Positions 1,988 to 10,891 of a stretch of 64,000 nt of DNA are shown piece after piece. The stretch is from NCBI GenBank assembly GCA_016187035.1, contig JACPKL010000005.1, positions 7,150 through 71,149 on the forward strand, read 5' to 3'. The notes beneath the pieces were generated by a model. It was given only the letters and a program-made list of their open reading frames with translations. It was not told where the DNA came from and ran no database searches. Origin of the DNA: Candidatus Daviesbacteria bacterium (GTDB lineage Bacteria > Patescibacteriota > Microgenomatia > Daviesbacterales > UBA10151). Each line of letters opens with the position of its first letter. The first letter of the stretch is position 1. Position numbers and translations under genes: made by a program.

Positions 1988-2067
1988 TTTCAAGCCAATT
2001 GTTGATCATGGAAAAGAAATTAACAATATATCTTTAACATAACAAACAAATACAATCCACCTCTGAG

Positions 2068-2793
2068 GTGTATAATAGGCAAATGTTTACAAACCAGAAA
2101 ATTTTAACAGTTTTTCTGATTTTATTTGTGATAGGGGCTTCTGTGTTTTTTGCCTTTACTAAATTCAAACAAGAAGTAAATAGCGTGACAGCCTCTCCTT
2201 CTCCCTCGCCTTCTCCTTTAGATTTTCTTTTGACTAAGACTCCTGCCCCTACTGCTGTGAACAACCAAACTCAATCAACTTCTCAACCTACTTCCCAGCC
2301 AACCGAGTTACCCTTGGAAAAAAACAAAAGATTAACCCAGTTTCCGGGAGTTTTGACAGATGAAAGCTTAGGAAATAAAAAAGCAGTGATACAAACGAAT
2401 AAAGGTACTATCCAAATTCAAATTTTTCCTGAAACAAAACTTGCCTCATCTAATTTTATGATTTTAGCAGCCAAGGGCTTTTATAATGGGTTGACCTTTC
2501 ACAGGGTAGAAGACTGGGTGGTCCAGGGAGGAGATCCAGAAGGAACAGGCAGAGGTGGGCCTGGGTATCAATTTAATGACGAGCCTGTAAACAGGTCTTA
2601 TGTAAGAGGGATAGTAGCTATGGCTAATGCTGGACCTAATACCAACGGCAGCCAATTTTTTATCTTAAAAAGAGATTATCCACTTGAGCCTCAATATACC
2701 ATTTTTGGCCAAGTTATTTCCGGGATTGATGTGGTAGATAATTTATCTGTTTCAGATGTGATACAAAAGGCGGTTGTCCAAAATCTTCAGTAA
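2068..2793 (+). CDS. Cyclophilin-type peptidyl-prolyl cis-trans isomerase, N-terminally membrane anchored
   Basis: TM helix ILTVFLILFVIGASVFFAF, SPSPSPSP linker, then cyclophilin core FHRVEDWVVQGGDPEGTGRGGPGY and MANAGPNTNGSQFFI. Confidence 0.9.
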   Translation: MYNRQMFTNQKILTVFLILFVIGASVFFAFTKFKQEVNSVTASPSPSPSPLDFLLTKTPAPTAVNNQTQSTSQPTSQPTELPLEKNKRLTQFPGVLTDESLGNKKAVIQTNKGTIQIQIFPETKLASSNFMILAAKGFYNGLTFHRVEDWVVQGGDPEGTGRGGPGYQFNDEPVNRSYVRGIVAMANAGPNTNGSQFFILKRDYPLEPQYTIFGQVISGIDVVDNLSVSDVIQKAVVQNLQ

Positions 2794-2886: not shown

Positions 2887-3330
2887 ATGAAATGCCCATT
2901 TTGTCAGAGTAGTTTGTCAAAAGTGATAGATAAAAGAGCAGTTGATAGCCGTGGGGAAATCCGCAGGCGCAGGGAGTGTTTAAAGTGCAGCAGACGCTTC
3001 ACGACTTATGAGACTGTAGCTGAGGTTGAGGTTTTGGTTATTAAAAGAGATGGAAAACGTGAACTGTTTGTGAGAGAGAAATTAGAAAGAGGTTTGAGCA
3101 AGGCTTTGGAAAAAAGACCAGGGATTGACAAGACCACTGAGGTAGTTGATAGAATAGAAGGCCGGATTAGAAATAGAAAGCTATCAGAAATTTCTTCACA
3201 AACTTTGGGCAAGTGGGTCCTTTCAGAACTTAAGAAACTAGATCTGATTGCTTATTTAAGGTTTGCTAGTGTGTACAGGACATTTTCCGATCCAAGAGAC
3301 TTTGCAAAAGAGTTGAAAACACTATCATGA
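2887..3330 (+). CDS. nrdR: Transcriptional repressor NrdR (zinc ribbon + ATP-cone)
   Basis: MKCPFCQS...CLKCSRRFTTYE zinc ribbon followed by an ATP-cone. 147 aa. Its stop overlaps the nrdJ start (ATGA at 3327-3330). Confidence 0.95.
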   Translation: MKCPFCQSSLSKVIDKRAVDSRGEIRRRRECLKCSRRFTTYETVAEVEVLVIKRDGKRELFVREKLERGLSKALEKRPGIDKTTEVVDRIEGRIRNRKLSEISSQTLGKWVLSELKKLDLIAYLRFASVYRTFSDPRDFAKELKTLS

Positions 3331-6300
3331 TAAAAAAAAGACAATATAGACCAACATTACAAATAATTACAGCACCAAAAGTTGGCAGGCCTAAAAAAAC
3401 TAATGGTGAATATGAACCTAATGGAATAGATAAAAATTCGCGTTCATTTGAAACCAGATTTGTTCCAAGATATAAAAAGATCCCTTCTTTGCCCCGAGGA
3501 CTACCCCAACCTGCTTTTTCTGAGAGTTCAAATAAGATTTTAAAAGAAAGATATTTGTTAAAAGGAGGAAATTTAGAAGTTACAGAAACTGTATCTGAAA
3601 GATTTTGGCATATTGCTTATGATATTGCCTCTGCAGATTTTGATTTCTCAGTTCCTGGCAAGCAAGTTTTTGAGACGGCTAAGCTGTTTTATACCATGAT
3701 GGTTAATCAGGAGTTTTTGCCTAATTCCCCTACTATTATGAATGCAGGCAAACAGAACGGATTACAATATTCAGCTTGTTTTGTTTTGCCTGTTGGTGAT
3801 TCCATCGGGGAAATTTTTGATAGCGTTAAGTATGCGGCACAAATCCACAAATCAGGAGGTGGAACCGGTTTTGCATTTTCCCGTCTTAGACCAAAAGACA
3901 GTATTGTTGCCACAACCGGTGGGGTTGCCTCCGGACCGGTCTCGTTTTTAAGAGTATTTAATGCTGCCACTGAAGCTATCAAACAAGGGGGCTGTTTCTC
4001 TGAAGATGCCTTGATTATGACTCATTTAGGTCTAGTCCCAATTAAAGAGATTGTTGAACAAAAAAGGACTTGGTATGTAGCTACTCATTTAGGCTTACAG
4101 CAAGTTACTGCTAAATTTGATAATGGGCAAAAAAAGCTTTATCAGGTGAAAACCCAGGCTGGTTTTACAGTCAAAGTTACAGCTGGGCATAAGTTTTTAA
4201 CAGCTGATAAAATGGGACATTTTTATCTTAAACCTTTATCTGACTTTCAAGTAGATGATCACTTAACGCTTTTGTTGGGAGCTTGGCCGGAAGATATTCC
4301 TTATGCTTTATTAAATACTGCAATCCCACAAAAATCTAAATACTCTTATGGCAGAATAGATATCAACTTGCCAAAACATCTTGATGAGAAATTGGCTTTT
4401 TTAATTGGTGTTTATCATGCTGATGGCTCAAAGATTTCTGATGAATATTCGCCTAATGGTAAGGGATTAAGAGTCGCTGTAGCAGAAAACAGGCCACAAG
4501 ATTTGCTTAAATTGACCAAAACAATAAAAGATATATTCGGATTGGATTGTACAATTACTAAAGGAGATGGAGCTGTCTATAATGTTAATTGTTTCTCCAG
4601 AAGTGTTAATGAGTTTTTAGCCTTGAACGGATTACTAAAAGAATCCTCAGTGGCAGTTACTGTTCCTGATATGATTTTTACTTCACCTAGAAGGGTGATT
4701 GAATCATACATAGCAGGAGTGTTTTTGGGTGACGGGGGAAATAGAGGGGGTAAGGGTGGGTTTAGGATCTCAACTGTTTCTAAAACCTTTGCACAACAGA
4801 TACAGGTATTACTTTTAAATCTAGGTATTGCCTCAAAAATAGCTGTTGAAAATAGACAAAGCAAGAATTGGAGAGATCTCTATAATGTTACCATTAATGG
4901 TAATCGCTTTATGAAAAAGTTTGCTGTTGTGATTTCTCCATATACTGAAAAAGTTAATGACCATCCAGTTTCTCATAAAGACTACGCCTTTAGGTGGCCT
5001 TTTAATTTAACTGAAAAGTATCTTCATTTATCAGGAATTCAAAGTGTTACTCCGGTTGGTAATATCTCTACTACTCAAAAGACAGTAGCATTTTTGCAAC
5101 AAAACGTAGGCTTTATTAATGAACAGGATCGCAATGACATATCACTCCTTGCCTCATGTGTTTCTGACAAAATTGCCTCTATTGAGTATATAGGGAAAGG
5201 TTATGTTTATGATTTAGAAGTGGGTAACACCCATCTTCTATCAGGAAATGGTTTTTATACCTCAAATTCCAGAAGAGGAGCAAACATGGGGATTTTAAGA
5301 ATAGATCATCCTGATATTTTAGAATTTATCAGGTGTAAAGCAGAGCTTGATGATACTAATAAACCAATATTTGAATCTGTAGCGCCGCTTCTGCCTGATG
5401 ATTCGACTAGAGAATATTTTAAGACTTTGCTTTTAGATAAACAGATTTCCAACTTTAACATTTCTTGTGCTATTACAGAAAAATTCATGGAAGCTTTGGA
5501 AAAGGATAAGGATTATGATTTGATTGATCCACATTCAGGTGAGGCTGTTGGTAAATTAAATGCTAGGCAGGTTTTTGATGAGATAGTGGAAAGGGCCTGG
5601 GCTACAGGAGATCCTGGTTTAATCTTTATTGACAGGATAAACAACTCCCCTGCCAATCCTGTACCATCCCTGGAAACTATTGAAAGCACAAATCCGTGCG
5701 GAGAACAGCCTCTGGCATCTTGGGATGCTTGTAACTTGGGATCAATAAACTTGGGTAAATTTGTTAAGGGAGATGGTAGCGGGGTGGATTGGGAAAGACT
5801 TGGGAACACAGTTAAGCTGGCTGTGCACTTTTTGGATAATGTTGTCCAAACTAACCCCTTTACCTTAAAACAGATTTATGATGAGGTACACCAAAATAGA
5901 AGGATAGGGTTGGGGGTAATGGGCTGGGCTGATATGCTGTTTATATTAAAAATTCCTTATAATTCTGAAGAGGCTTTAAAGTTAGCTGAACAGGTGATGC
6001 AGTTTATTAATGAAGAAGGACATAAGATGAGTGAGGATTTAGCTCAAGTGCGCGGGTCTTTTCCTAATTGGTCGAATTCCATCTATGCTGATGGAAACCC
6101 AATCAGAAACTCAACAATTACCACCATTGCTCCTACCGGAACAATTTCTATAATTGGTGATTGTTCTTCTGGAATTGAACCAGTTTTTGCCTTAGCCTAT
6201 ATTCATAAAGCTAAAAGTGTTGGCGATCAGTATAGAATTTTAACAATTGCTAATCAGACTTTTGCAGAGATAGCTAGAGAAAAGGGTTTTTGGTCTGATG

Positions 6301-7133
6301 ATTTAGCTGAAAAAGTTTTAGAAAAAGGTTCTGTGGCAGGGATACCAGAAGTGCCTGAGGAATGGCAAAAGGTTTTTGTAACTGCTCCAGAGATTGATCC
6401 AATTTTCCATGTAAAGATGCAAGCTGCATTTCAAAAATATACTGATAATGGAGTTTCCAAAACAATTAATTTACCAAATTCAGCAACAGTTGATGATGTG
6501 AGGACAGCTTATATGCTCTCGTACCAGACAGGCTGCAATGGCATTACTATTTACAGAGATGGGTCTAAGGCAGTTCAGGTTTTAAATGTTTCATCTGCTT
6601 TACAGAAAACTCAACAAGAAGTTATTCCTGTGGCTGAGAGGCCAATGATACTGCGTGGCAGAACCTATAAAGTATCTACTCCTGTGGGAGAAGCATTCAT
6701 TACTATTAATAGGGATGAGCAGGATCAACCATTTGAAGTATTTGTGACTGTTGGAAAAGGTGGGATGCATACAATGGCAGATGCTGAAGCAATGGGGAGA
6801 TTGGTTTCTTTATCTTTAAGGTTATCCAGAGCTGGTAAAAGTTTACCAAAGGAAGTTGCTCAAAAAATTACTCAGCAGTTAAGAGGAATTGGAGGAGCTT
6901 CAACAGTAGGGTTTGGGAAAAATAGGGTGATGAGTTTAGCTGATGCAATTGCTAAAGTTTTGTCAGAAGATTCGGCCCAGTCATCAACTGCTCAAACAGC
7001 AGAACCGATACCATTAAATTTAACTTCTTCTTCCAAGACCCAGGCAGATTTGTGTCCTGAATGCGGCAGCGCCTCCTTTGTAATGGAAGAAGGCTGTAAA
7101 AAATGCCATAGCTGTGGATACTCAATGTGTTAA
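3327..7133 (+). CDS. nrdJ: Class II (adenosylcobalamin-dependent) ribonucleotide reductase, interrupted by an intein
   Basis: 1268 aa. Has the extein motif KQGG / SRRGANMG split by the insert, TNPCGEQPL, NLGSINL, and a C-terminal Cys-rich zinc ribbon CPECGS...CKKCHSCG. The extein is 843 aa once the insert is removed. Confidence 0.9.
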   Translation: MIKKRQYRPTLQIITAPKVGRPKKTNGEYEPNGIDKNSRSFETRFVPRYKKIPSLPRGLPQPAFSESSNKILKERYLLKGGNLEVTETVSERFWHIAYDIASADFDFSVPGKQVFETAKLFYTMMVNQEFLPNSPTIMNAGKQNGLQYSACFVLPVGDSIGEIFDSVKYAAQIHKSGGGTGFAFSRLRPKDSIVATTGGVASGPVSFLRVFNAATEAIKQGGCFSEDALIMTHLGLVPIKEIVEQKRTWYVATHLGLQQVTAKFDNGQKKLYQVKTQAGFTVKVTAGHKFLTADKMGHFYLKPLSDFQVDDHLTLLLGAWPEDIPYALLNTAIPQKSKYSYGRIDINLPKHLDEKLAFLIGVYHADGSKISDEYSPNGKGLRVAVAENRPQDLLKLTKTIKDIFGLDCTITKGDGAVYNVNCFSRSVNEFLALNGLLKESSVAVTVPDMIFTSPRRVIESYIAGVFLGDGGNRGGKGGFRISTVSKTFAQQIQVLLLNLGIASKIAVENRQSKNWRDLYNVTINGNRFMKKFAVVISPYTEKVNDHPVSHKDYAFRWPFNLTEKYLHLSGIQSVTPVGNISTTQKTVAFLQQNVGFINEQDRNDISLLASCVSDKIASIEYIGKGYVYDLEVGNTHLLSGNGFYTSNSRRGANMGILRIDHPDILEFIRCKAELDDTNKPIFESVAPLLPDDSTREYFKTLLLDKQISNFNISCAITEKFMEALEKDKDYDLIDPHSGEAVGKLNARQVFDEIVERAWATGDPGLIFIDRINNSPANPVPSLETIESTNPCGEQPLASWDACNLGSINLGKFVKGDGSGVDWERLGNTVKLAVHFLDNVVQTNPFTLKQIYDEVHQNRRIGLGVMGWADMLFILKIPYNSEEALKLAEQVMQFINEEGHKMSEDLAQVRGSFPNWSNSIYADGNPIRNSTITTIAPTGTISIIGDCSSGIEPVFALAYIHKAKSVGDQYRILTIANQTFAEIAREKGFWSDDLAEKVLEKGSVAGIPEVPEEWQKVFVTAPEIDPIFHVKMQAAFQKYTDNGVSKTINLPNSATVDDVRTAYMLSYQTGCNGITIYRDGSKAVQVLNVSSALQKTQQEVIPVAERPMILRGRTYKVSTPVGEAFITINRDEQDQPFEVFVTVGKGGMHTMADAEAMGRLVSLSLRLSRAGKSLPKEVAQKITQQLRGIGGASTVGFGKNRVMSLADAIAKVLSEDSAQSSTAQTAEPIPLNLTSSSKTQADLCPECGSASFVMEEGCKKCHSCGYSMC
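3993..5267 (+). mobile_element. Intein with LAGLIDADG homing-endonuclease domain (425 aa) inside nrdJ
   Basis: Starts at Cys (CFSEDALIMT) directly after KQGG. Has block B TAGH, two LAGLIDADG-like motifs (LAFLIGVYHADGS, YIAGVFLGDGG), block F VYDLEVGNTHLL, and ends ...FYTSN followed by +1 Ser (SRRGANMG). Confidence 0.85.
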
Positions 7134-7144
7134 GCTTATTAGCT

Positions 7145-7160
7145 TTCCACCCCAAGGGTG
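7145..7160. repeat. REP-like motif copy 1 (TTCCACCCCAAGGGTG)
   Basis: CCACCC-CAA-GGGTG hairpin core 12 nt after the nrdJ stop. Identical over 16 nt to the copy at 7852. Confidence 0.7.
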
Positions 7161-7165
7161 CCCCC

Positions 7166-7810
7166 TCAAATTTCTTCTAAAACTTGATGTTTTATTTGTT
7201 CTAATCTTTCTCCGTAATCCACCTGGTCTAAGATATATTGTCTATAATCTTGAGGGTTTTTAAAAAAACCTAAAATTTCCTGTTTAGCACAAAAACCATC
7301 CACCTCACCTAAATATTCCTTATAAGAAGACCATTCATAACTTTCTAAATCTTTTACTAAAAGTGAGACTCTAGGATTCAGATGAATGTATCTGGAAAGA
7401 TGAATTAATTGTTCGTCTTTTTCTATAAGAACAGATTTGAATTCCCCTTGCAGGAGATGACCAATCCTATTATATTTGGCATTGTAATACTTTGTGTAAC
7501 TGTTGCTTATTTTACCCACAAATTCTGTGATTCCTCCATCCACTGACTGTCTGAGTAGCAGATGAAAATGGTTAGGCATCAGACAATAGGAAACAATATC
7601 TACAATCTTTTTAGATGGATCTGGTCTAAAAGTTTGAAATTGAGAAAAATTAGAAAATTTTGGTTTTGGCCCCGAATGCTGATAATAATTTAAAGTTTTT
7701 ATAAATCTTTGGTAATCTCTTCTGCTACTAAAAATTAACCTTTTTTCATTACCACGGTTATAAACATGATAAAAGTAACCATTGGCGAAGGGAAAAATTC
7801 TTGATGGCAT
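7166..7810 (-). CDS. REP-associated / IS200-like Y1 (HUH) transposase
   Basis: YHVYNRGN, HUH motif MPNHFHLLL and catalytic-Tyr region RYIHLNP. 214 aa. Confidence 0.85.
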   Translation of the reverse strand: MPSRIFPFANGYFYHVYNRGNEKRLIFSSRRDYQRFIKTLNYYQHSGPKPKFSNFSQFQTFRPDPSKKIVDIVSYCLMPNHFHLLLRQSVDGGITEFVGKISNSYTKYYNAKYNRIGHLLQGEFKSVLIEKDEQLIHLSRYIHLNPRVSLLVKDLESYEWSSYKEYLGEVDGFCAKQEILGFFKNPQDYRQYILDQVDYGERLEQIKHQVLEEI

Positions 7811-7851
7811 TCGATCTTAGCATATTCTAAAAATCCGCAGGTGTCAACCTA

Positions 7852-7870
7852 TTCCACCCCAAGGGTGGAA
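7852..7870. repeat. REP-like motif copy 2 (TTCCACCC-CAA-GGGTGGAA hairpin)
   Basis: Perfect 8-bp stem with a 3-nt loop. Shares TTCCACCCCAAGGGTG with 7145-7160. Confidence 0.7.
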
Positions 7871-7905
7871 GTAGTAATTAAGCTTGAGTTTGCTAAAATG
7901 AGCTC

Positions 7906-8433
7906 ATGGATAAGGGATTAGTGATTGTTTATACTGGTGAAGGAAAAGGGAAAACTACTGCTGCTTTGGGATTAGTGCTGAGGGCTTCTGGTTACAACAA
8001 AAGATGTTTTGTTGTTCAATTTGGCAAAGCTTGGTTTACAGGAGAGCTTGTTGGAATTAAAAAGCTAGGCACCAAGGTGAAAATAATCCAAGGCGGTAAA
8101 GGTTTTTTAAACATCTTAGGGAGTAAGATTTCCAAAACAGAGCATAAAAAAGCAGCTAATCAGACTTATGATATATTATATAAGGAAGTTATGTCCAATA
8201 ATTGGGATATAGTGGTAGCTGATGAGATTATTGGTGCAGTCTCATCTAAAGTCTTATCTATTACAAGACTTTTACAGCTTATCAATGATAAACCTTCCCA
8301 ATTAGATTTAGTATTAACAGGCCATCATGCTCCAAAGGAGTTGATTAAATTGGCTGATCTAGTAACCGAGATGAGGGAAGTCAAACATCCGTACCGAGTG
8401 GGAATTTTAGCAAAAAAAGGGATTGACTTTTAG
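7906..8433 (+). CDS. cobA: Cob(I)alamin (cob(I)yrinic acid a,c-diamide) adenosyltransferase, CobA/BtuR type
   Basis: 175 aa. P-loop YTGEGKGKTTAALG followed by VVQF.K, the typical CobA/CobO/BtuR layout. Confidence 0.8.
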   Translation: MDKGLVIVYTGEGKGKTTAALGLVLRASGYNKRCFVVQFGKAWFTGELVGIKKLGTKVKIIQGGKGFLNILGSKISKTEHKKAANQTYDILYKEVMSNNWDIVVADEIIGAVSSKVLSITRLLQLINDKPSQLDLVLTGHHAPKELIKLADLVTEMREVKHPYRVGILAKKGIDF

Positions 8434-8473: not shown

Positions 8474-10891
8474 ATGGCAGACTTTATAAAACCTGGTTTA
8501 ACATCACCATTAACTTTAAAACCTGTTATACCAGTTGGGCCTTTAAGAGATACAGTGATCTTTCCTGGTAACTCTGTTCCAATAATTTCCGGAAGACCCA
8601 AATCTAAAGCAGCTTTAGATGTGGCCTGGAATTCTGATAAGTTAATTGTTTTTGTTACACAAAAAAACAGCAAAATTGAAGATCCTACAGAGAAAGATTT
8701 ATATAAAGTTGGCACTGTTTGTTTAATCCGACGGGTAGTAAAAAACCCAGAAGGTGAATATACTCTACAAGCTGAAGGTTTAAGCAGGGTATATTTAAAA
8801 AAATTCACTAAAACAGACACTTATTTAGAAGCAGAAATTGAAGAAATTCCAGAGCTTTATGAGAGGTCAGATCAAACTGAGGCTTTAATTAGAACAGTTA
8901 GGGAACAAGTCAGACGCTTCTTAGAACTTGGGGGAAATCCGTTTTTTGATCAAAGCAATTTTGCTAACTGGTCATTGTTTACATATAGTGATGATCCAAA
9001 TCAGCTTGTTAATTCCATTGCTCAGTCAATAGATTTTAAAACTATAGATAAGCAGCAAATCCTTGAGATGGTTTCAGCAGTGGACAGACTACACAGATTA
9101 TCAGAGCTTTTGGCTAAAGAAATTAGAATTATGGAAATTTCCCAAAAAATCTCATCTCAAACTCAAGAACGGGTTTCTAAGATTACTAAAGAAGCTATCC
9201 TAAAAGAGCAAATGAAAAGCATAGAAGAAGAGTTAAGCGGAGGGGATAGCGAACATCAAGAGATTCGTGAATTTGAAATGAGAATTAAAAGAGTAGGAAT
9301 GCCTAAGGAGGTACTTGAGAAAGCTAAGAAGGAGCTAGCAAGACTTGCCAAAATGTCTTCTTATAATCCTGAAGCTGGTTATATCAGAAATTATTTGGAG
9401 TGGTTAACAGATTTGCCTTGGAGGCTGCAAAAAGATAATAAGGTAAATTTGAAAAAAGCAGAACAGATTTTAGATGAGGACCATTATGGTTTAAAAAAAG
9501 TTAAAGAACGAATTATAGAATATTTGGCTGTGCATAAATTATCAGGGAAAATGAGAGGTCCTATTCTTTGTTTTGTCGGACCACCTGGAGTTGGGAAAAC
9601 CTCAATTGGAAAGTCTATTGCCAGGGCCTTAGGCAGAAAATTTATTAAAGTTTCTTTAGGAGGAATCAGAGATGAAGCTGAAATTAGAGGGCATCGAAGA
9701 ACATACGTAGGATCAATGCCAGGGAGAATCATCCAAGGGATTAAACAAGCAGGCAGCAAGAACCCGGTTTTTATGCTGGATGAGATTGATAAAATTGGGA
9801 CAGATTACCGCGGTGATCCTTCTGCAGCTTTGCTTGAAGCTCTAGACCCTGAACAAAATGAAGGTTTTTCTGATCATTATTTAGAAGTATCATATGATTT
9901 ATCCAATGTTATGTTTATCACCACAGCTAATATCTTAGATACTGTTCCCCCTGCTTTAAGAGATAGACTGGAGGTTATCCGCTATCCAGGTTATACTGAA
10001 GATGAAAAGTTCCATATTGCTAAAAAGTTTTTACTTCCTAAACAGATAAATAATCATGGATTAAAACCTACCCAGATTGAGTTTGAAGATGAGGCAATCA
10101 GATCAATTATTAGAGGTTATACCAGAGAAGCAGGGGTACGTAATTTAGAAAGAGAATTATCTGCTGTAATTAGAAAAGTAGCCAGAAAAGTAGCAGAAGG
10201 GGAAAGTAATCAAAAATTTATTATCAAGCCACAAGATTTACATGGGTTCCTAGGGCCAATTAAGTTTCTGCCTCTTTTAGCTGAGAAGCAGGATGAAGTA
10301 GGCATGGTGACTGGTTTGTCTGTAACTGAGGCAGGCGGTGAAATCCTGTTCATTGAGGTAACTTTGATGCCTGGTAAAGGGGGTTTGCTTTTGACCGGGC
10401 AACTGGGTGATGTGATGAAAGAATCAGGCCAGGCTGCTATGTCATATGTCAGATCCCATTGGTTACAGTTGGGTTTGCCTGAACGGTTTTTCCAAAAGAT
10501 GGATGTGCATATCCATGTTCCAGAAGGGGCTATTCCCAAAGATGGGCCATCAGCAGGTATTGCTCTAACAACAGCTATAGTGTCTGCATTCACTAAAATT
10601 GCTGTTCACAAAGATGTAGCTATGACTGGTGAGGTAACTTTAAGAGGTAGGGTTTTAGAGATTGGAGGATTTAAGGAAAAGGTGTTAGCAGCACACAGGG
10701 CAGGAGTAAAGGTGGTAATTGCACCTGCTGATAATGAGAAAGATATGGAAGATATTCCTGACTATGTCCAAAAAGATTTACAGTTTATCTTTGTTAGTCA
10801 CATGAATGAGGTGTTAAATGTAGCTTTAGTCAAACCCCCTAAGTCATCTCAGCAAAAGAGTGTGCCGGTTTCTCCGGTCTATATCGCCTGA
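8474..10891 (+). CDS. lon: ATP-dependent Lon protease
   Basis: LON N-domain, Walker [10 protein letters not shown], catalytic serine [10 protein letters not shown]. 805 aa. Confidence 0.95.

Follow-up and report, generated by a model that had tools for sequence, protein, structure and literature searches.

Systems that pair repetitive extragenic palindromes (REPs) with REP-associated tyrosine transposases (RAYTs) are known mainly from large-genome Proteobacteria. Such pairs, or REPtrons, were reportedly described by Nunvar (2010), Bertels and Rainey (2011) and Ton-Hoang (2012), for E. coli YafM (TnpA_REP) and for the RAYTs of Pseudomonas. Here we analyse an arrangement of this kind in a 64-kb stretch of contig JACPKL010000005.1 of Candidatus Daviesbacteria (the whole stretch is referred to below as the window), where a gene coding for a 214-aa HUH/Y1 protein, here called the Y1 gene, lies between nrdJ and cobA with copies of a GC-rich hairpin sequence on both flanks. 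We consider it likely that this locus is a resident ('domesticated') RAYT/TnpA_REP-like system, REPtron-like in its make-up, of an atypical kind and devoid of a GTAG tag.

With REPtrons the locus shares an HUH/Y1 core whose nearest structure is 4er8, a single-copy, vertically inherited gene that is conserved like a housekeeping gene, a GC-rich palindrome of its own that flanks the gene and is dispersed in related genomes, different palindromes beside different paralogues, and a strand bias such as an enzyme working on the lagging-strand template could leave. It differs from them in several respects: the protein stays below the NCBIfam RAYT cutoff and carries a C-terminal helical extension of ∼60 aa; a 5' GT[AG]G tag is missing from the repeat, which possesses instead a second conserved element, an 11-nt box 9–10 nt from the hairpin; the flanking copies are direct, one of them truncated, rather than inverted REPIN doublets; the copy number looks very low in genomes that carry an orthologue; and the host, a member of the Daviesbacteria within the candidate phyla radiation (CPR), has a genome of only ∼1 Mb.

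Bertels et al. (2017) recognise RAYTs by their occurrence in single copy, by vertical inheritance and by flanking 16-mers that recur often in the rest of the genome (PMC5581495). Here the gene is single-copy (in 64 kb) and vertically inherited, and its flanking sequence recurs in related genomes but not in the window. Quentin et al. (2018) distinguished 12 subclasses of TnpAY1 proteins, some of them with atypical REPs lacking GT[AG]G, and recorded in-frame insertions of REPs in genes; the atypical repeat and the intragenic copies reported below are therefore not new in kind (PMC6006769). By description only, the present protein can be likened to subclass 2.6 and class 3 of that scheme, which comprise TnpA_REP-related Y1 proteins flanked by secondary structures of an atypical kind, devoid of GT[AG]G and present again elsewhere in the genome, and with core-domain extensions that include a conserved serine (PMC6006769). 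A hairpin and box with an embedded promoter is not described in the text of that study, nor are CPR or Microgenomates mentioned there. What is distinctive here is the hairpin with a distal box and an embedded promoter, and the locus departs from the usual definition in lacking the GT[AG]G tag and in scoring below the NCBIfam cutoff. Among the papers covered by a full-text search, none linked REP/RAYT systems with the candidate phyla radiation.

If our reading is correct, a RAYT-like enzyme has been retained at one fixed locus, under housekeeping-like selection, through much of a ∼1-Mb CPR lineage. Its cognate repeat would be of an unusual type (hairpin plus distal box, no GTAG tag, the promoter of the gene embedded) and would survive, in gene-dense genomes, in frame inside essential genes. 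The locus would offer a small, naturally occurring system in which to study what domesticated Y1 enzymes contribute to their hosts. Such genes are routinely annotated 'transposase' in metagenome-derived CPR genomes though they are not mobile, and their repeats break assemblies. Of the by-products of the analysis, the most interesting is the wider family of units, with its dispersal, its strand bias and its occasional siting inside genes.

The Y1 protein and its place between nrdJ and cobA

The Y1 gene occupies positions 7166..7810 of the minus strand from ATG to stop, as delimited by its open reading frame (ORF) and characterized by Pfam, profile and fold searches. The presence of a 214-aa HUH/Y1 transposase, which the original prediction had read from the sequence, is confirmed by a Pfam Y1_Tnp match of 35.1 bits (cutoff 23), by an HUH motif made up of H81-F-H83 (NHFHLL, nt 7570-7562) and by the catalytic Tyr141 predicted within RYIHLNP (nt 7390-7388). 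A WSS motif is found at residues 160-162, and the C-terminal helical extension covers approximately residues 150-214. Across 57 diverse homologues (down to 36% identity), H15, H81, H83 and G117 are invariant, while Y14, N18, R19, R140, Y141, H143, N145, P146, S161 and S162 are kept in at least 90% of the alignment.

When the profile of these 57 homologues was compared with the PDB, the best match was 4er8, E. coli TnpA_REP (YafM) bound to a REP hairpin. This match (E=2.9e-7) spans the HUH motif, the tyrosine helix and WSS, whereas that to ISDra2 TnpA (E=2e-3) is confined to the HUH region. A Foldseek search with an AlphaFold2 model (mean predicted local distance difference test score 71; residues 94-121 weak) gave 4er8 as the sole significant match (E=5e-4, probability 1.0), with the IS200, IS608 and ISDra2 transposases at E ∼0.1. 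By profile and by modelled fold, the protein is closest to E. coli TnpA_REP and not to the TnpA of IS200/IS605 elements, and its earlier assignment to the RayT type stands. Matches to Cas13b that arose in a single-sequence phmmer search of the PDB were discarded as spurious, a profile being needed for this comparison. The family is large: in a 50%-identity library it comprises 488 clusters at E<=1e-30 and 10,446 at E<=1e-10.

In the window, the Y1 gene is convergent with nrdJ (3327-7133, plus strand; ORF and Pfam), coding for a class II ribonucleotide reductase with a LAGLIDADG intein, and divergent from cobA/btuR (7906-8433, plus strand; Pfam), coding for an ATP:corrinoid adenosyltransferase and its constant neighbour in relatives. 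Upstream of nrdJ lies nrdR (2887-3330), and cobA is followed by lon (8474-10891) and then by a gene for an H+-pyrophosphatase, all on the plus strand and identified by ORF and Pfam. Database records identical to proteins of the window bear the name Candidatus Daviesbacteria. A comparison of nrdJ–cobA junctions among relatives had been proposed as a check, and nine look-ups by protein were carried out, with Y1 homologues at 63–84% identity and CobA homologues as starting points (labels of the form L### denote related loci or contigs fetched for comparison). The order nrdR–nrdJ–[Y1, opposite strand]–cobA–lon–pyrophosphatase is kept in all look-ups but one, down to 63% identity, with extra genes occasionally present between Y1 and nrdJ. 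Y1 adjoins nrdJ in most loci inspected, protein identities among loci being 61–95%, and cobA is the divergent neighbour in 17 of the 22 distinct loci that have a repeat unit (see below) directly upstream of the Y1 gene.

The pairwise identities of Y1 correlate with those of CobA (Mantel r=0.45, 0/5000 permutations), and the mean identities are 0.68 for Y1 vs 0.69 for CobA. Equal conservation and co-divergence with CobA therefore indicate purifying selection on Y1 like that on a housekeeping gene. No second copy of the Y1 gene is present in the 64-kb window. Judged from synteny and co-divergence, the Y1 gene is an ancient resident of the nrdJ/cobA junction that is inherited vertically and does not itself move. 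The picture of a cassette recently wedged between two genes, which the original prediction had drawn, must be given up in favour of an old arrangement that is syntenic across Daviesbacteria.

The single look-up that departs from this order is L258, whose CobA is 78% identical to that of the window and which has neither a Y1 gene nor a unit. Its nrdJ–cobA gap (L258:4386-4797) holds an unrelated plus-strand ORF of 94 aa with no Pfam match on record. From such comparisons the junction looks like a variable slot.

The hairpin-and-box unit

An exact 16-mer, TTCCACCCCAAGGGTG, is present at positions 7145-7160 and 7852-7867, and no further occurrence is found in the 64 kb even at 3 mismatches (shuffled sequences average 0.35 matches). 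The claim of a hairpin on both flanks thus holds for the 16-mer, but only the right copy forms a full hairpin, and the two copies are in direct orientation with the same CAA loop, not inverted as originally described. On the right, the plus-strand sequence TTCCACCC CAA GGGTGGAA (7852..7870), found by repeat search and folding, makes a perfect 8-bp GC-rich hairpin with a 3-nt loop, and folding of either strand returns it as the minimum-free-energy element (z = -3.3 and -3.8). This hairpin is part of a full unit of ∼65 nt on the 5' side of the Y1 gene (7807..7873, minus strand; nhmmer with a model of 106 distinct units, E=1.9e-19). On the minus strand the 5' unit reads TTCCACCC-TTG-GGGTGGAA-TAGG-TTGACA-CCTGCGGAT-TTTTAGAA-TATGCT, ending 8 nt before the Y1 ATG. 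The box, CACCTGCGGAT (7833..7843, minus strand), has its sole copy in the window here, 9–10 nt from the hairpin foot, and it is kept in units (subfamilies) with a differing -35-like hexamer.

The copy on the 3' side of the gene (7139..7163, minus strand; exact 16-mer at 7145-7160, partial nhmmer match with E=5e-3) is truncated. Its minus-strand sequence is (TGA)GGGGG-CACCC-TTG-GGGTGGAA-AGCTAA, in which the far arm (GGGTGcc) is missing and no more than 5 bp can pair, and the copy at 7145-7160 is not predicted as the minimum-free-energy fold. The tail of this copy, GGTGGAAAGCTAA, is conserved downstream of orthologues and ends at 7139, 5 nt from the nrdJ stop. Contrary to what had been supposed, the left end therefore does not overlap the nrdJ stop; the sequence that does so is a non-conserved 8-mer, TTAAGCTT (7130..7137, plus strand, including the stop TAA at 7131-7133), whose second, direct copy lies at 7878..7885 (plus strand) in a non-conserved spacer between the hairpin and the cobA promoter. 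These 8-mers had been read as related inverted outer ends (AAGCTTA-TTA) and can equally be read as direct repeats. Neither TTAAGCTT nor AAGCTTA..TTA occurs in L260, L001 and L004, the closest relatives (80–84% protein identity, with L260 at 84%), and a target-site duplication or a terminal inverted repeat was rejected on this ground. Because of this absence, we regard the two copies as probably coincidental and not as element ends. The flanking hairpins, on the other hand, are not due to chance, since every relative examined keeps them on either side of its orthologous gene.

A variant palindrome, TCCACCTC-TG-AGGTG followed by TATAAT, was also noticed in an intergenic region at window positions 2054-2072. 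It resembles the CCACCT/AGGTGG variant near some Y1 genes, reaches a marginal nhmmer score (E=0.055) and may be a decayed solo copy.

The flank alignment places a unit upstream of Y1 in all orthologues. On the gene strand its consensus is (T)TCCACCC-loop-GGGTGGA-(9–10 nt)-CACCTGCGGAT-(AT-rich)-TAtgCT, with the ATG 23–24 nt past the box. A sigma-70-like Y1 promoter, TTGACA-17 nt-TATGCT, is predicted within the 5' unit (7819..7847, minus strand; promoter scan, score 10 of 12), such that its -35 and spacer fall inside the unit; the distance from this promoter to the ATG is constant among the orthologues. Because the -10 (TATGCT) ends 8 nt before the ATG, the Y1 mRNA is probably leaderless. For cobA, an extended -10, TGCTAAAAT (TGC-TAAAAT), can be read at 7891..7899 of the plus strand, 6 nt before the ATG at 7906 and outside the repeat unit. 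The same TGnTAnAAT-6 nt-ATG arrangement is found in L001, L004 and L009 as well as in the Y1-less L258. Since the cobA -10 is conserved, lies outside the repeat and is present where Y1 is not, the cassette is not its supplier, contrary to what had been considered. The hairpin occupies the position where a cobA -35 would lie, and cross-talk of Y1 binding with cobA expression is possible on this layout. A Shine-Dalgarno sequence is not evident for either of the two divergent genes, and both appear leaderless.

The suggestion that the cassette supplies a terminator for nrdJ fared no better: between 6900 and 8100 neither strand yielded a terminator-like site, the stem is not followed by a T-run, and the hairpin on the left is weak. 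No known RNA emerged when the same interval was searched against Rfam by E-value, the only hit being a sub-threshold false positive to Histone3.

The 3' flank varies among relatives. It carries the truncated hairpin with tail GGTGGAAAGCTAA in the window, L001 and L004, a second full direct unit in L009, L040, L174, L227, L228 and L259, and an inverted unit in L202 and L247. In L202, and upstream of Y1 in L247, the box is found on both sides of the hairpin (ATCCGCAGGTG..hairpin..CACATACGGAT). This double-sided form raises the possibility that the complete ancestral element was a long palindrome of ∼60 nt, of which most copies may have kept one half.

Some stem variants are compensatory (CCACCT/AGGTGG, TGTACACCC/GGGTGTACA), and in several of the variants pairing is kept by double changes. 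In L256, a complete Daviesbacteria genome (CP066688.1), both flanking hairpins have become CACATCGGGAGTGG and the box CACATCGGTA, so that they have changed in concert. Paralogues of Y1 at 44–58% identity have other palindromes on both flanks, for example AACCTCGGAGGTT and GCACACTCCTGGTGTG, AACCTC(C)GGAGGTT in L147, GCACAC(T/A)CC(T/A)GG(T/A)GTG in L009, TTCCACCT-TAG-AGGTGGAA in L030 and TGTACACCC..GGGTGTACA in L156/181/183. L009 (3479-4129) and L147 each have a second Y1 paralogue a few kb away, 54–58% identical and with a palindrome family of its own.

Short tandem duplications of the left arm accompany 8 of the 106 hairpins vs none of 94 control positions. Duplications of 10–31 nt beside hairpins were seen at L004:4298-4345, at L014:6189-6232, on both Y1 flanks in L181, and in L251, L136, L191, L253 and L185, among them 3x TGAGCCGACACCCT, 2x GGGTGGGAAAGCTAAAATG and 2x AAACTTCCACCCTTG; those in L004, L014 and L181 adjoin the Y1 gene itself. 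Slippage may have left these duplications, or else cutting and rejoining.

Solitary units, their siting and their strand

Copies away from the Y1 locus are found in related genomes that carry an orthologue. In the Daviesbacteria genome UBA9644, a solo unit lies 20 kb from the Y1 locus (L063), and a further copy stands at the very start of contig L119, where it cannot be classed as solo or Y1-adjacent. JAUYKM (L101) has two units 1.75 kb apart, and hairpin-only copies occur on other contigs of the JACPZA and JACOYE genomes. The REPtron layout put forward in the original prediction is thus borne out as regards a palindrome proper to the gene, dispersed copies in related genomes and paralogue-specific hairpins, and fails as regards the inverted arrangement.

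Two collections were scanned with exact patterns, so that the counts are lower bounds and the conservation within the pattern is in part a matter of ascertainment. In metagenomes, the pattern GGGGTGGA-N9-10-CACCTGCGGAT matched at least 120 stretches; among the matches listed, 18 units lie directly upstream of a Y1 gene, 4 directly downstream and ∼80 are genuine solo units, and ∼20 further matches are GC-rich chance occurrences in which the left arm is missing. The same pattern had zero matches in a viral contig collection. A scan of species-representative genomes with the 16-mer CACCCTTGGGGTGGAA gave at least 120 matches (L016-L135), most of them in high-GC Actinomycetota, which we assume to be chance occurrences in GC-rich DNA. 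Members of the unit family are present in Daviesbacteria, and a Paceibacterota genome had them as well.

Three hairpins in tandem, TCCCACC-TCTC-GGGTGGGA, TTCCACCC-TTG-GGGTGGAA and TCCCACCTC-GG-AGGTGGGA, were noted in an Amesbacteria locus (L029:1400-1480) and resemble a cluster of bacterial interspersed mosaic elements. Several contigs start or stop exactly at the hairpin or box (L119 and L260 at their starts), as would be expected of a repeat on which short-read assemblies break. In L086 the box follows, on the opposite strand, a T-arm-like sequence (GGTTCAAATCC); the idea of a tRNA or att site was abandoned, as ARAGORN found no tRNA there or near any unit.

The siting of the 106 distinct units was scored with the direction from hairpin to box taken as forward. 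Only 2 lie between two genes that both run in the orientation of the unit, and a role of solo units as promoters of downstream genes was rejected on this count. Another 41 adjoin the 3' end of an oppositely running gene; outside the units before Y1 genes, the gene on the box side is nearly always antisense to the unit. Fifteen of the 106 are inside long ORFs in antisense orientation, so that translation runs in frame through their reverse complement. The hosts of the in-frame units, all in related loci and not in the window, are lepA (L083, L138, L176, L218-220, L232, L236, L239), a gene for a YfhO-like membrane protein (L153/L197/L203/L253), murT (L229), a tsaE-sua5 fusion (L188), a NifU-like gene (L207), recO (L212) and an epimerase gene (L173).

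Compared with solved LepA structures, the unit lengthens the protein by 8 residues, precisely where the G domain meets domain II. Lineages with LepA proteins only 70–75% identical share one codon position of the unit in lepA, all of the lepA loci compared having been retrieved through the unit itself. The encoded peptide varies between lineages (SAGVNVFHPKGG, SAGVNIIPPQGW, SAGVATVPPRGW) because the length of the spacer shifts the frame, while the DNA motif stays. Short palindromes tolerated in frame in conserved genes are also a property of Rickettsia palindromic elements, intragenic REPs and miniature inverted-repeat transposable elements. The Rickettsia elements differ in being 100–150 bp long, and are not known to have a cognate enzyme, whereas the present unit has ∼40–65 nt and is linked to a Y1 gene.

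Among 70 loci of at least 4 kb, 62 show negative GC skew on the strand that carries the forward unit (p=2e-11), a bias that is confounded with gene orientation and is for this reason support rather than proof. The plus strand of the window is G-rich along its full length and holds the reverse-complement unit; 71% of long-ORF bases are on this strand. IS608, ISDra2 and TnpA_REP act on the lagging-strand template (PMC6006769). The bias of the units is of the kind expected from a single-strand-specific Y1 enzyme and in this sense supports its involvement.

These observations can be brought together in the following scheme. The 214-aa protein would be a single-domain HUH/Y1 endonuclease and ligase for single-stranded DNA, with H81, H83 and Y141 as catalytic residues. 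It would recognise its cognate repeat in single-stranded form, namely the 8-bp hairpin TTCCACCC-N3-GGGTGGAA together with the CACCTGCGGAT box 9–10 nt away. The recognised strand would most likely be the lagging-strand template, which corresponds to the plus strand of the window and on which the box lies 5' of the hairpin. Cutting and rejoining beside the repeat could maintain, copy or remove units of ∼65 nt, and protein bound to the 5' unit could auto-regulate its own gene and influence the abutting cobA promoter. The strand bias and the tandem arm duplications are indirect signs that the protein may bind and cleave the single-stranded repeat.

Alternative readings and other features of the window

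Several observations weigh against interpreting the locus as a RAYT-like system. The NCBIfam model REP_Tyr_transpos (equivalog NF047646) matches the protein with 45.9 bits over residues 60-161 only, below its cutoff of 80. A canonical GT[AG]G tag has no consensus at the hairpin foot, the feet being CTAC/TAGG here and AAAC, xATG and others elsewhere (GTAGCTAC is found in the unit spacer of one subfamily only), and the flanking copies are direct and not inverted REPIN doublets. No solo unit is present in the 64-kb window beyond the Y1-flanking copies, and in ∼140 kb around the orthologous loci of nine relatives only two weak partial matches were found; the repeat population in this genome and its near relatives may thus be tiny or extinct. 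The solo copies from metagenomes are not assignable to genomes that carry this exact orthologue, and the confounding of the strand bias has been noted above. Within the window, the hairpin motif literally occurs only here, a situation in which the original prediction would have favoured a single copy of an insertion sequence (IS) or chance; the solo copies in orthologous genomes overturn that conclusion.

A first alternative is that the Y1 protein has been fully exapted as a DNA-binding or nicking factor (an autoregulator, a cobA regulator or an accessory of replication or repair), the hairpins being its operators and the solo units relics or the property of other enzymes. The housekeeping-like conservation and the fixed synteny with cobA would follow naturally, as would the placement of the hairpin and box exactly over the Y1 -35 and spacer, abutting the cobA promoter, and the near absence of solo units from the window and the surroundings of orthologous loci; moreover, TnpAY1 subclasses without REPs are on record and host functions have been proposed for them (PMC6006769, PMC5581495). 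However, a pure binder needs neither the HUH motif nor the tyrosine, both of which are strictly kept, and solo units do exist in orthologue-carrying genomes such as UBA9644. The tandem duplications at hairpins point to the cutting and joining of DNA, and the 5' and 3' hairpins evolve in concert (L256). Full exaptation is in our opinion unlikely.

A broader proposal would extend the RAYT-like reading beyond this locus. Here the hairpin and box would go beyond selfish DNA and constitute a signal used across several CPR lineages, read on single-stranded DNA, under selection at the nucleotide level and served by the Y1 protein as reader or writer, so that in ultra-small genomes a REP/RAYT pair would have yielded a host function linked to single-stranded DNA or the replication fork. 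The idea is suggested by the common codon site in lepA, the shifting peptide frame, the other in-frame hosts, the almost absolute strand bias and the fixed position of Y1 beside nrdJ and cobA, both of them nucleotide-supply genes. We put it forward as a conjecture that is probably wrong.

The locus might also be an autonomous single-copy IS of the IS200/IS605 type (tnpA only), inserted site-specifically between nrdJ and cobA with the direct hairpins as its left and right ends. IS200/IS605 elements (IS608, ISDra2, IS200) do resemble the locus in using HUH/Y1 chemistry and in having a subterminal hairpin near each end, both on the same strand. In both, certain nucleotides at a set spacing from the foot of the hairpin are conserved, in the manner of guide and cleavage sequences, and there is a bias to the lagging-strand template. 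Direct hairpins on the same strand are what their two ends would look like; full direct units surround the gene in the six loci L009, L040, L174, L227, L228 and L259, the cassette is missing from one relative (L258), and contigs often break at the hairpin (L119, L260). Their transposases, however, have 130–155 aa and the elements are multi-copy and mobile, whereas here the gene is syntenic and single-copy, and its 214-aa protein has a YxHxNP...WSS region of the RAYT type and is nearer to 4er8 than to the transposases of IS200, IS608 or ISDra2. The gene holds the same chromosomal position in most loci examined at 61–95% protein identity and co-diverges with CobA; no near-identical second copy is found in the window or the flanks, the second copies being paralogues of 54–58% identity with different hairpins; and the 3' end is variable (truncated, direct or inverted). 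We judge a mobile element of this kind to be very improbable.

A last alternative takes the hairpins for ordinary signals of transcription, such as a terminator of nrdJ or of Y1 or a regulatory stem for cobA, that happen to surround a decaying transposase relic. GC-rich stems at gene ends speak for it, as does the usual position of the reverse-complement unit, which on the sense strand comes just after the 3' end of a gene. But with no T-run or terminator-like site, a left copy that does not fold as a hairpin, an upstream copy between two divergent starts where there is nothing to terminate, a gene that is intact and conserved like CobA, units in frame inside genes and an empty Rfam search, this can be dismissed as having almost no chance of being right.

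A resident RAYT-like system with a hairpin-and-box repeat is therefore the reading that we retain. Apart from it, two features of the window are worth recording. The NrdJ intein spans approximately aa 237-641 and includes a LAGLIDADG homing-endonuclease domain. It is absent from the nrdJ genes of L004, L009, L010, L014, L256 and L259 (843–903 aa) and present in those of L001 and L258, so that the intein is polymorphic in the lineage. Finally, the G+C content of the window is 34.7%, with a value of 0.29 between 36001 and 44000 vs 0.35–0.37 in the rest, and this low-G+C segment may be foreign or otherwise atypical.

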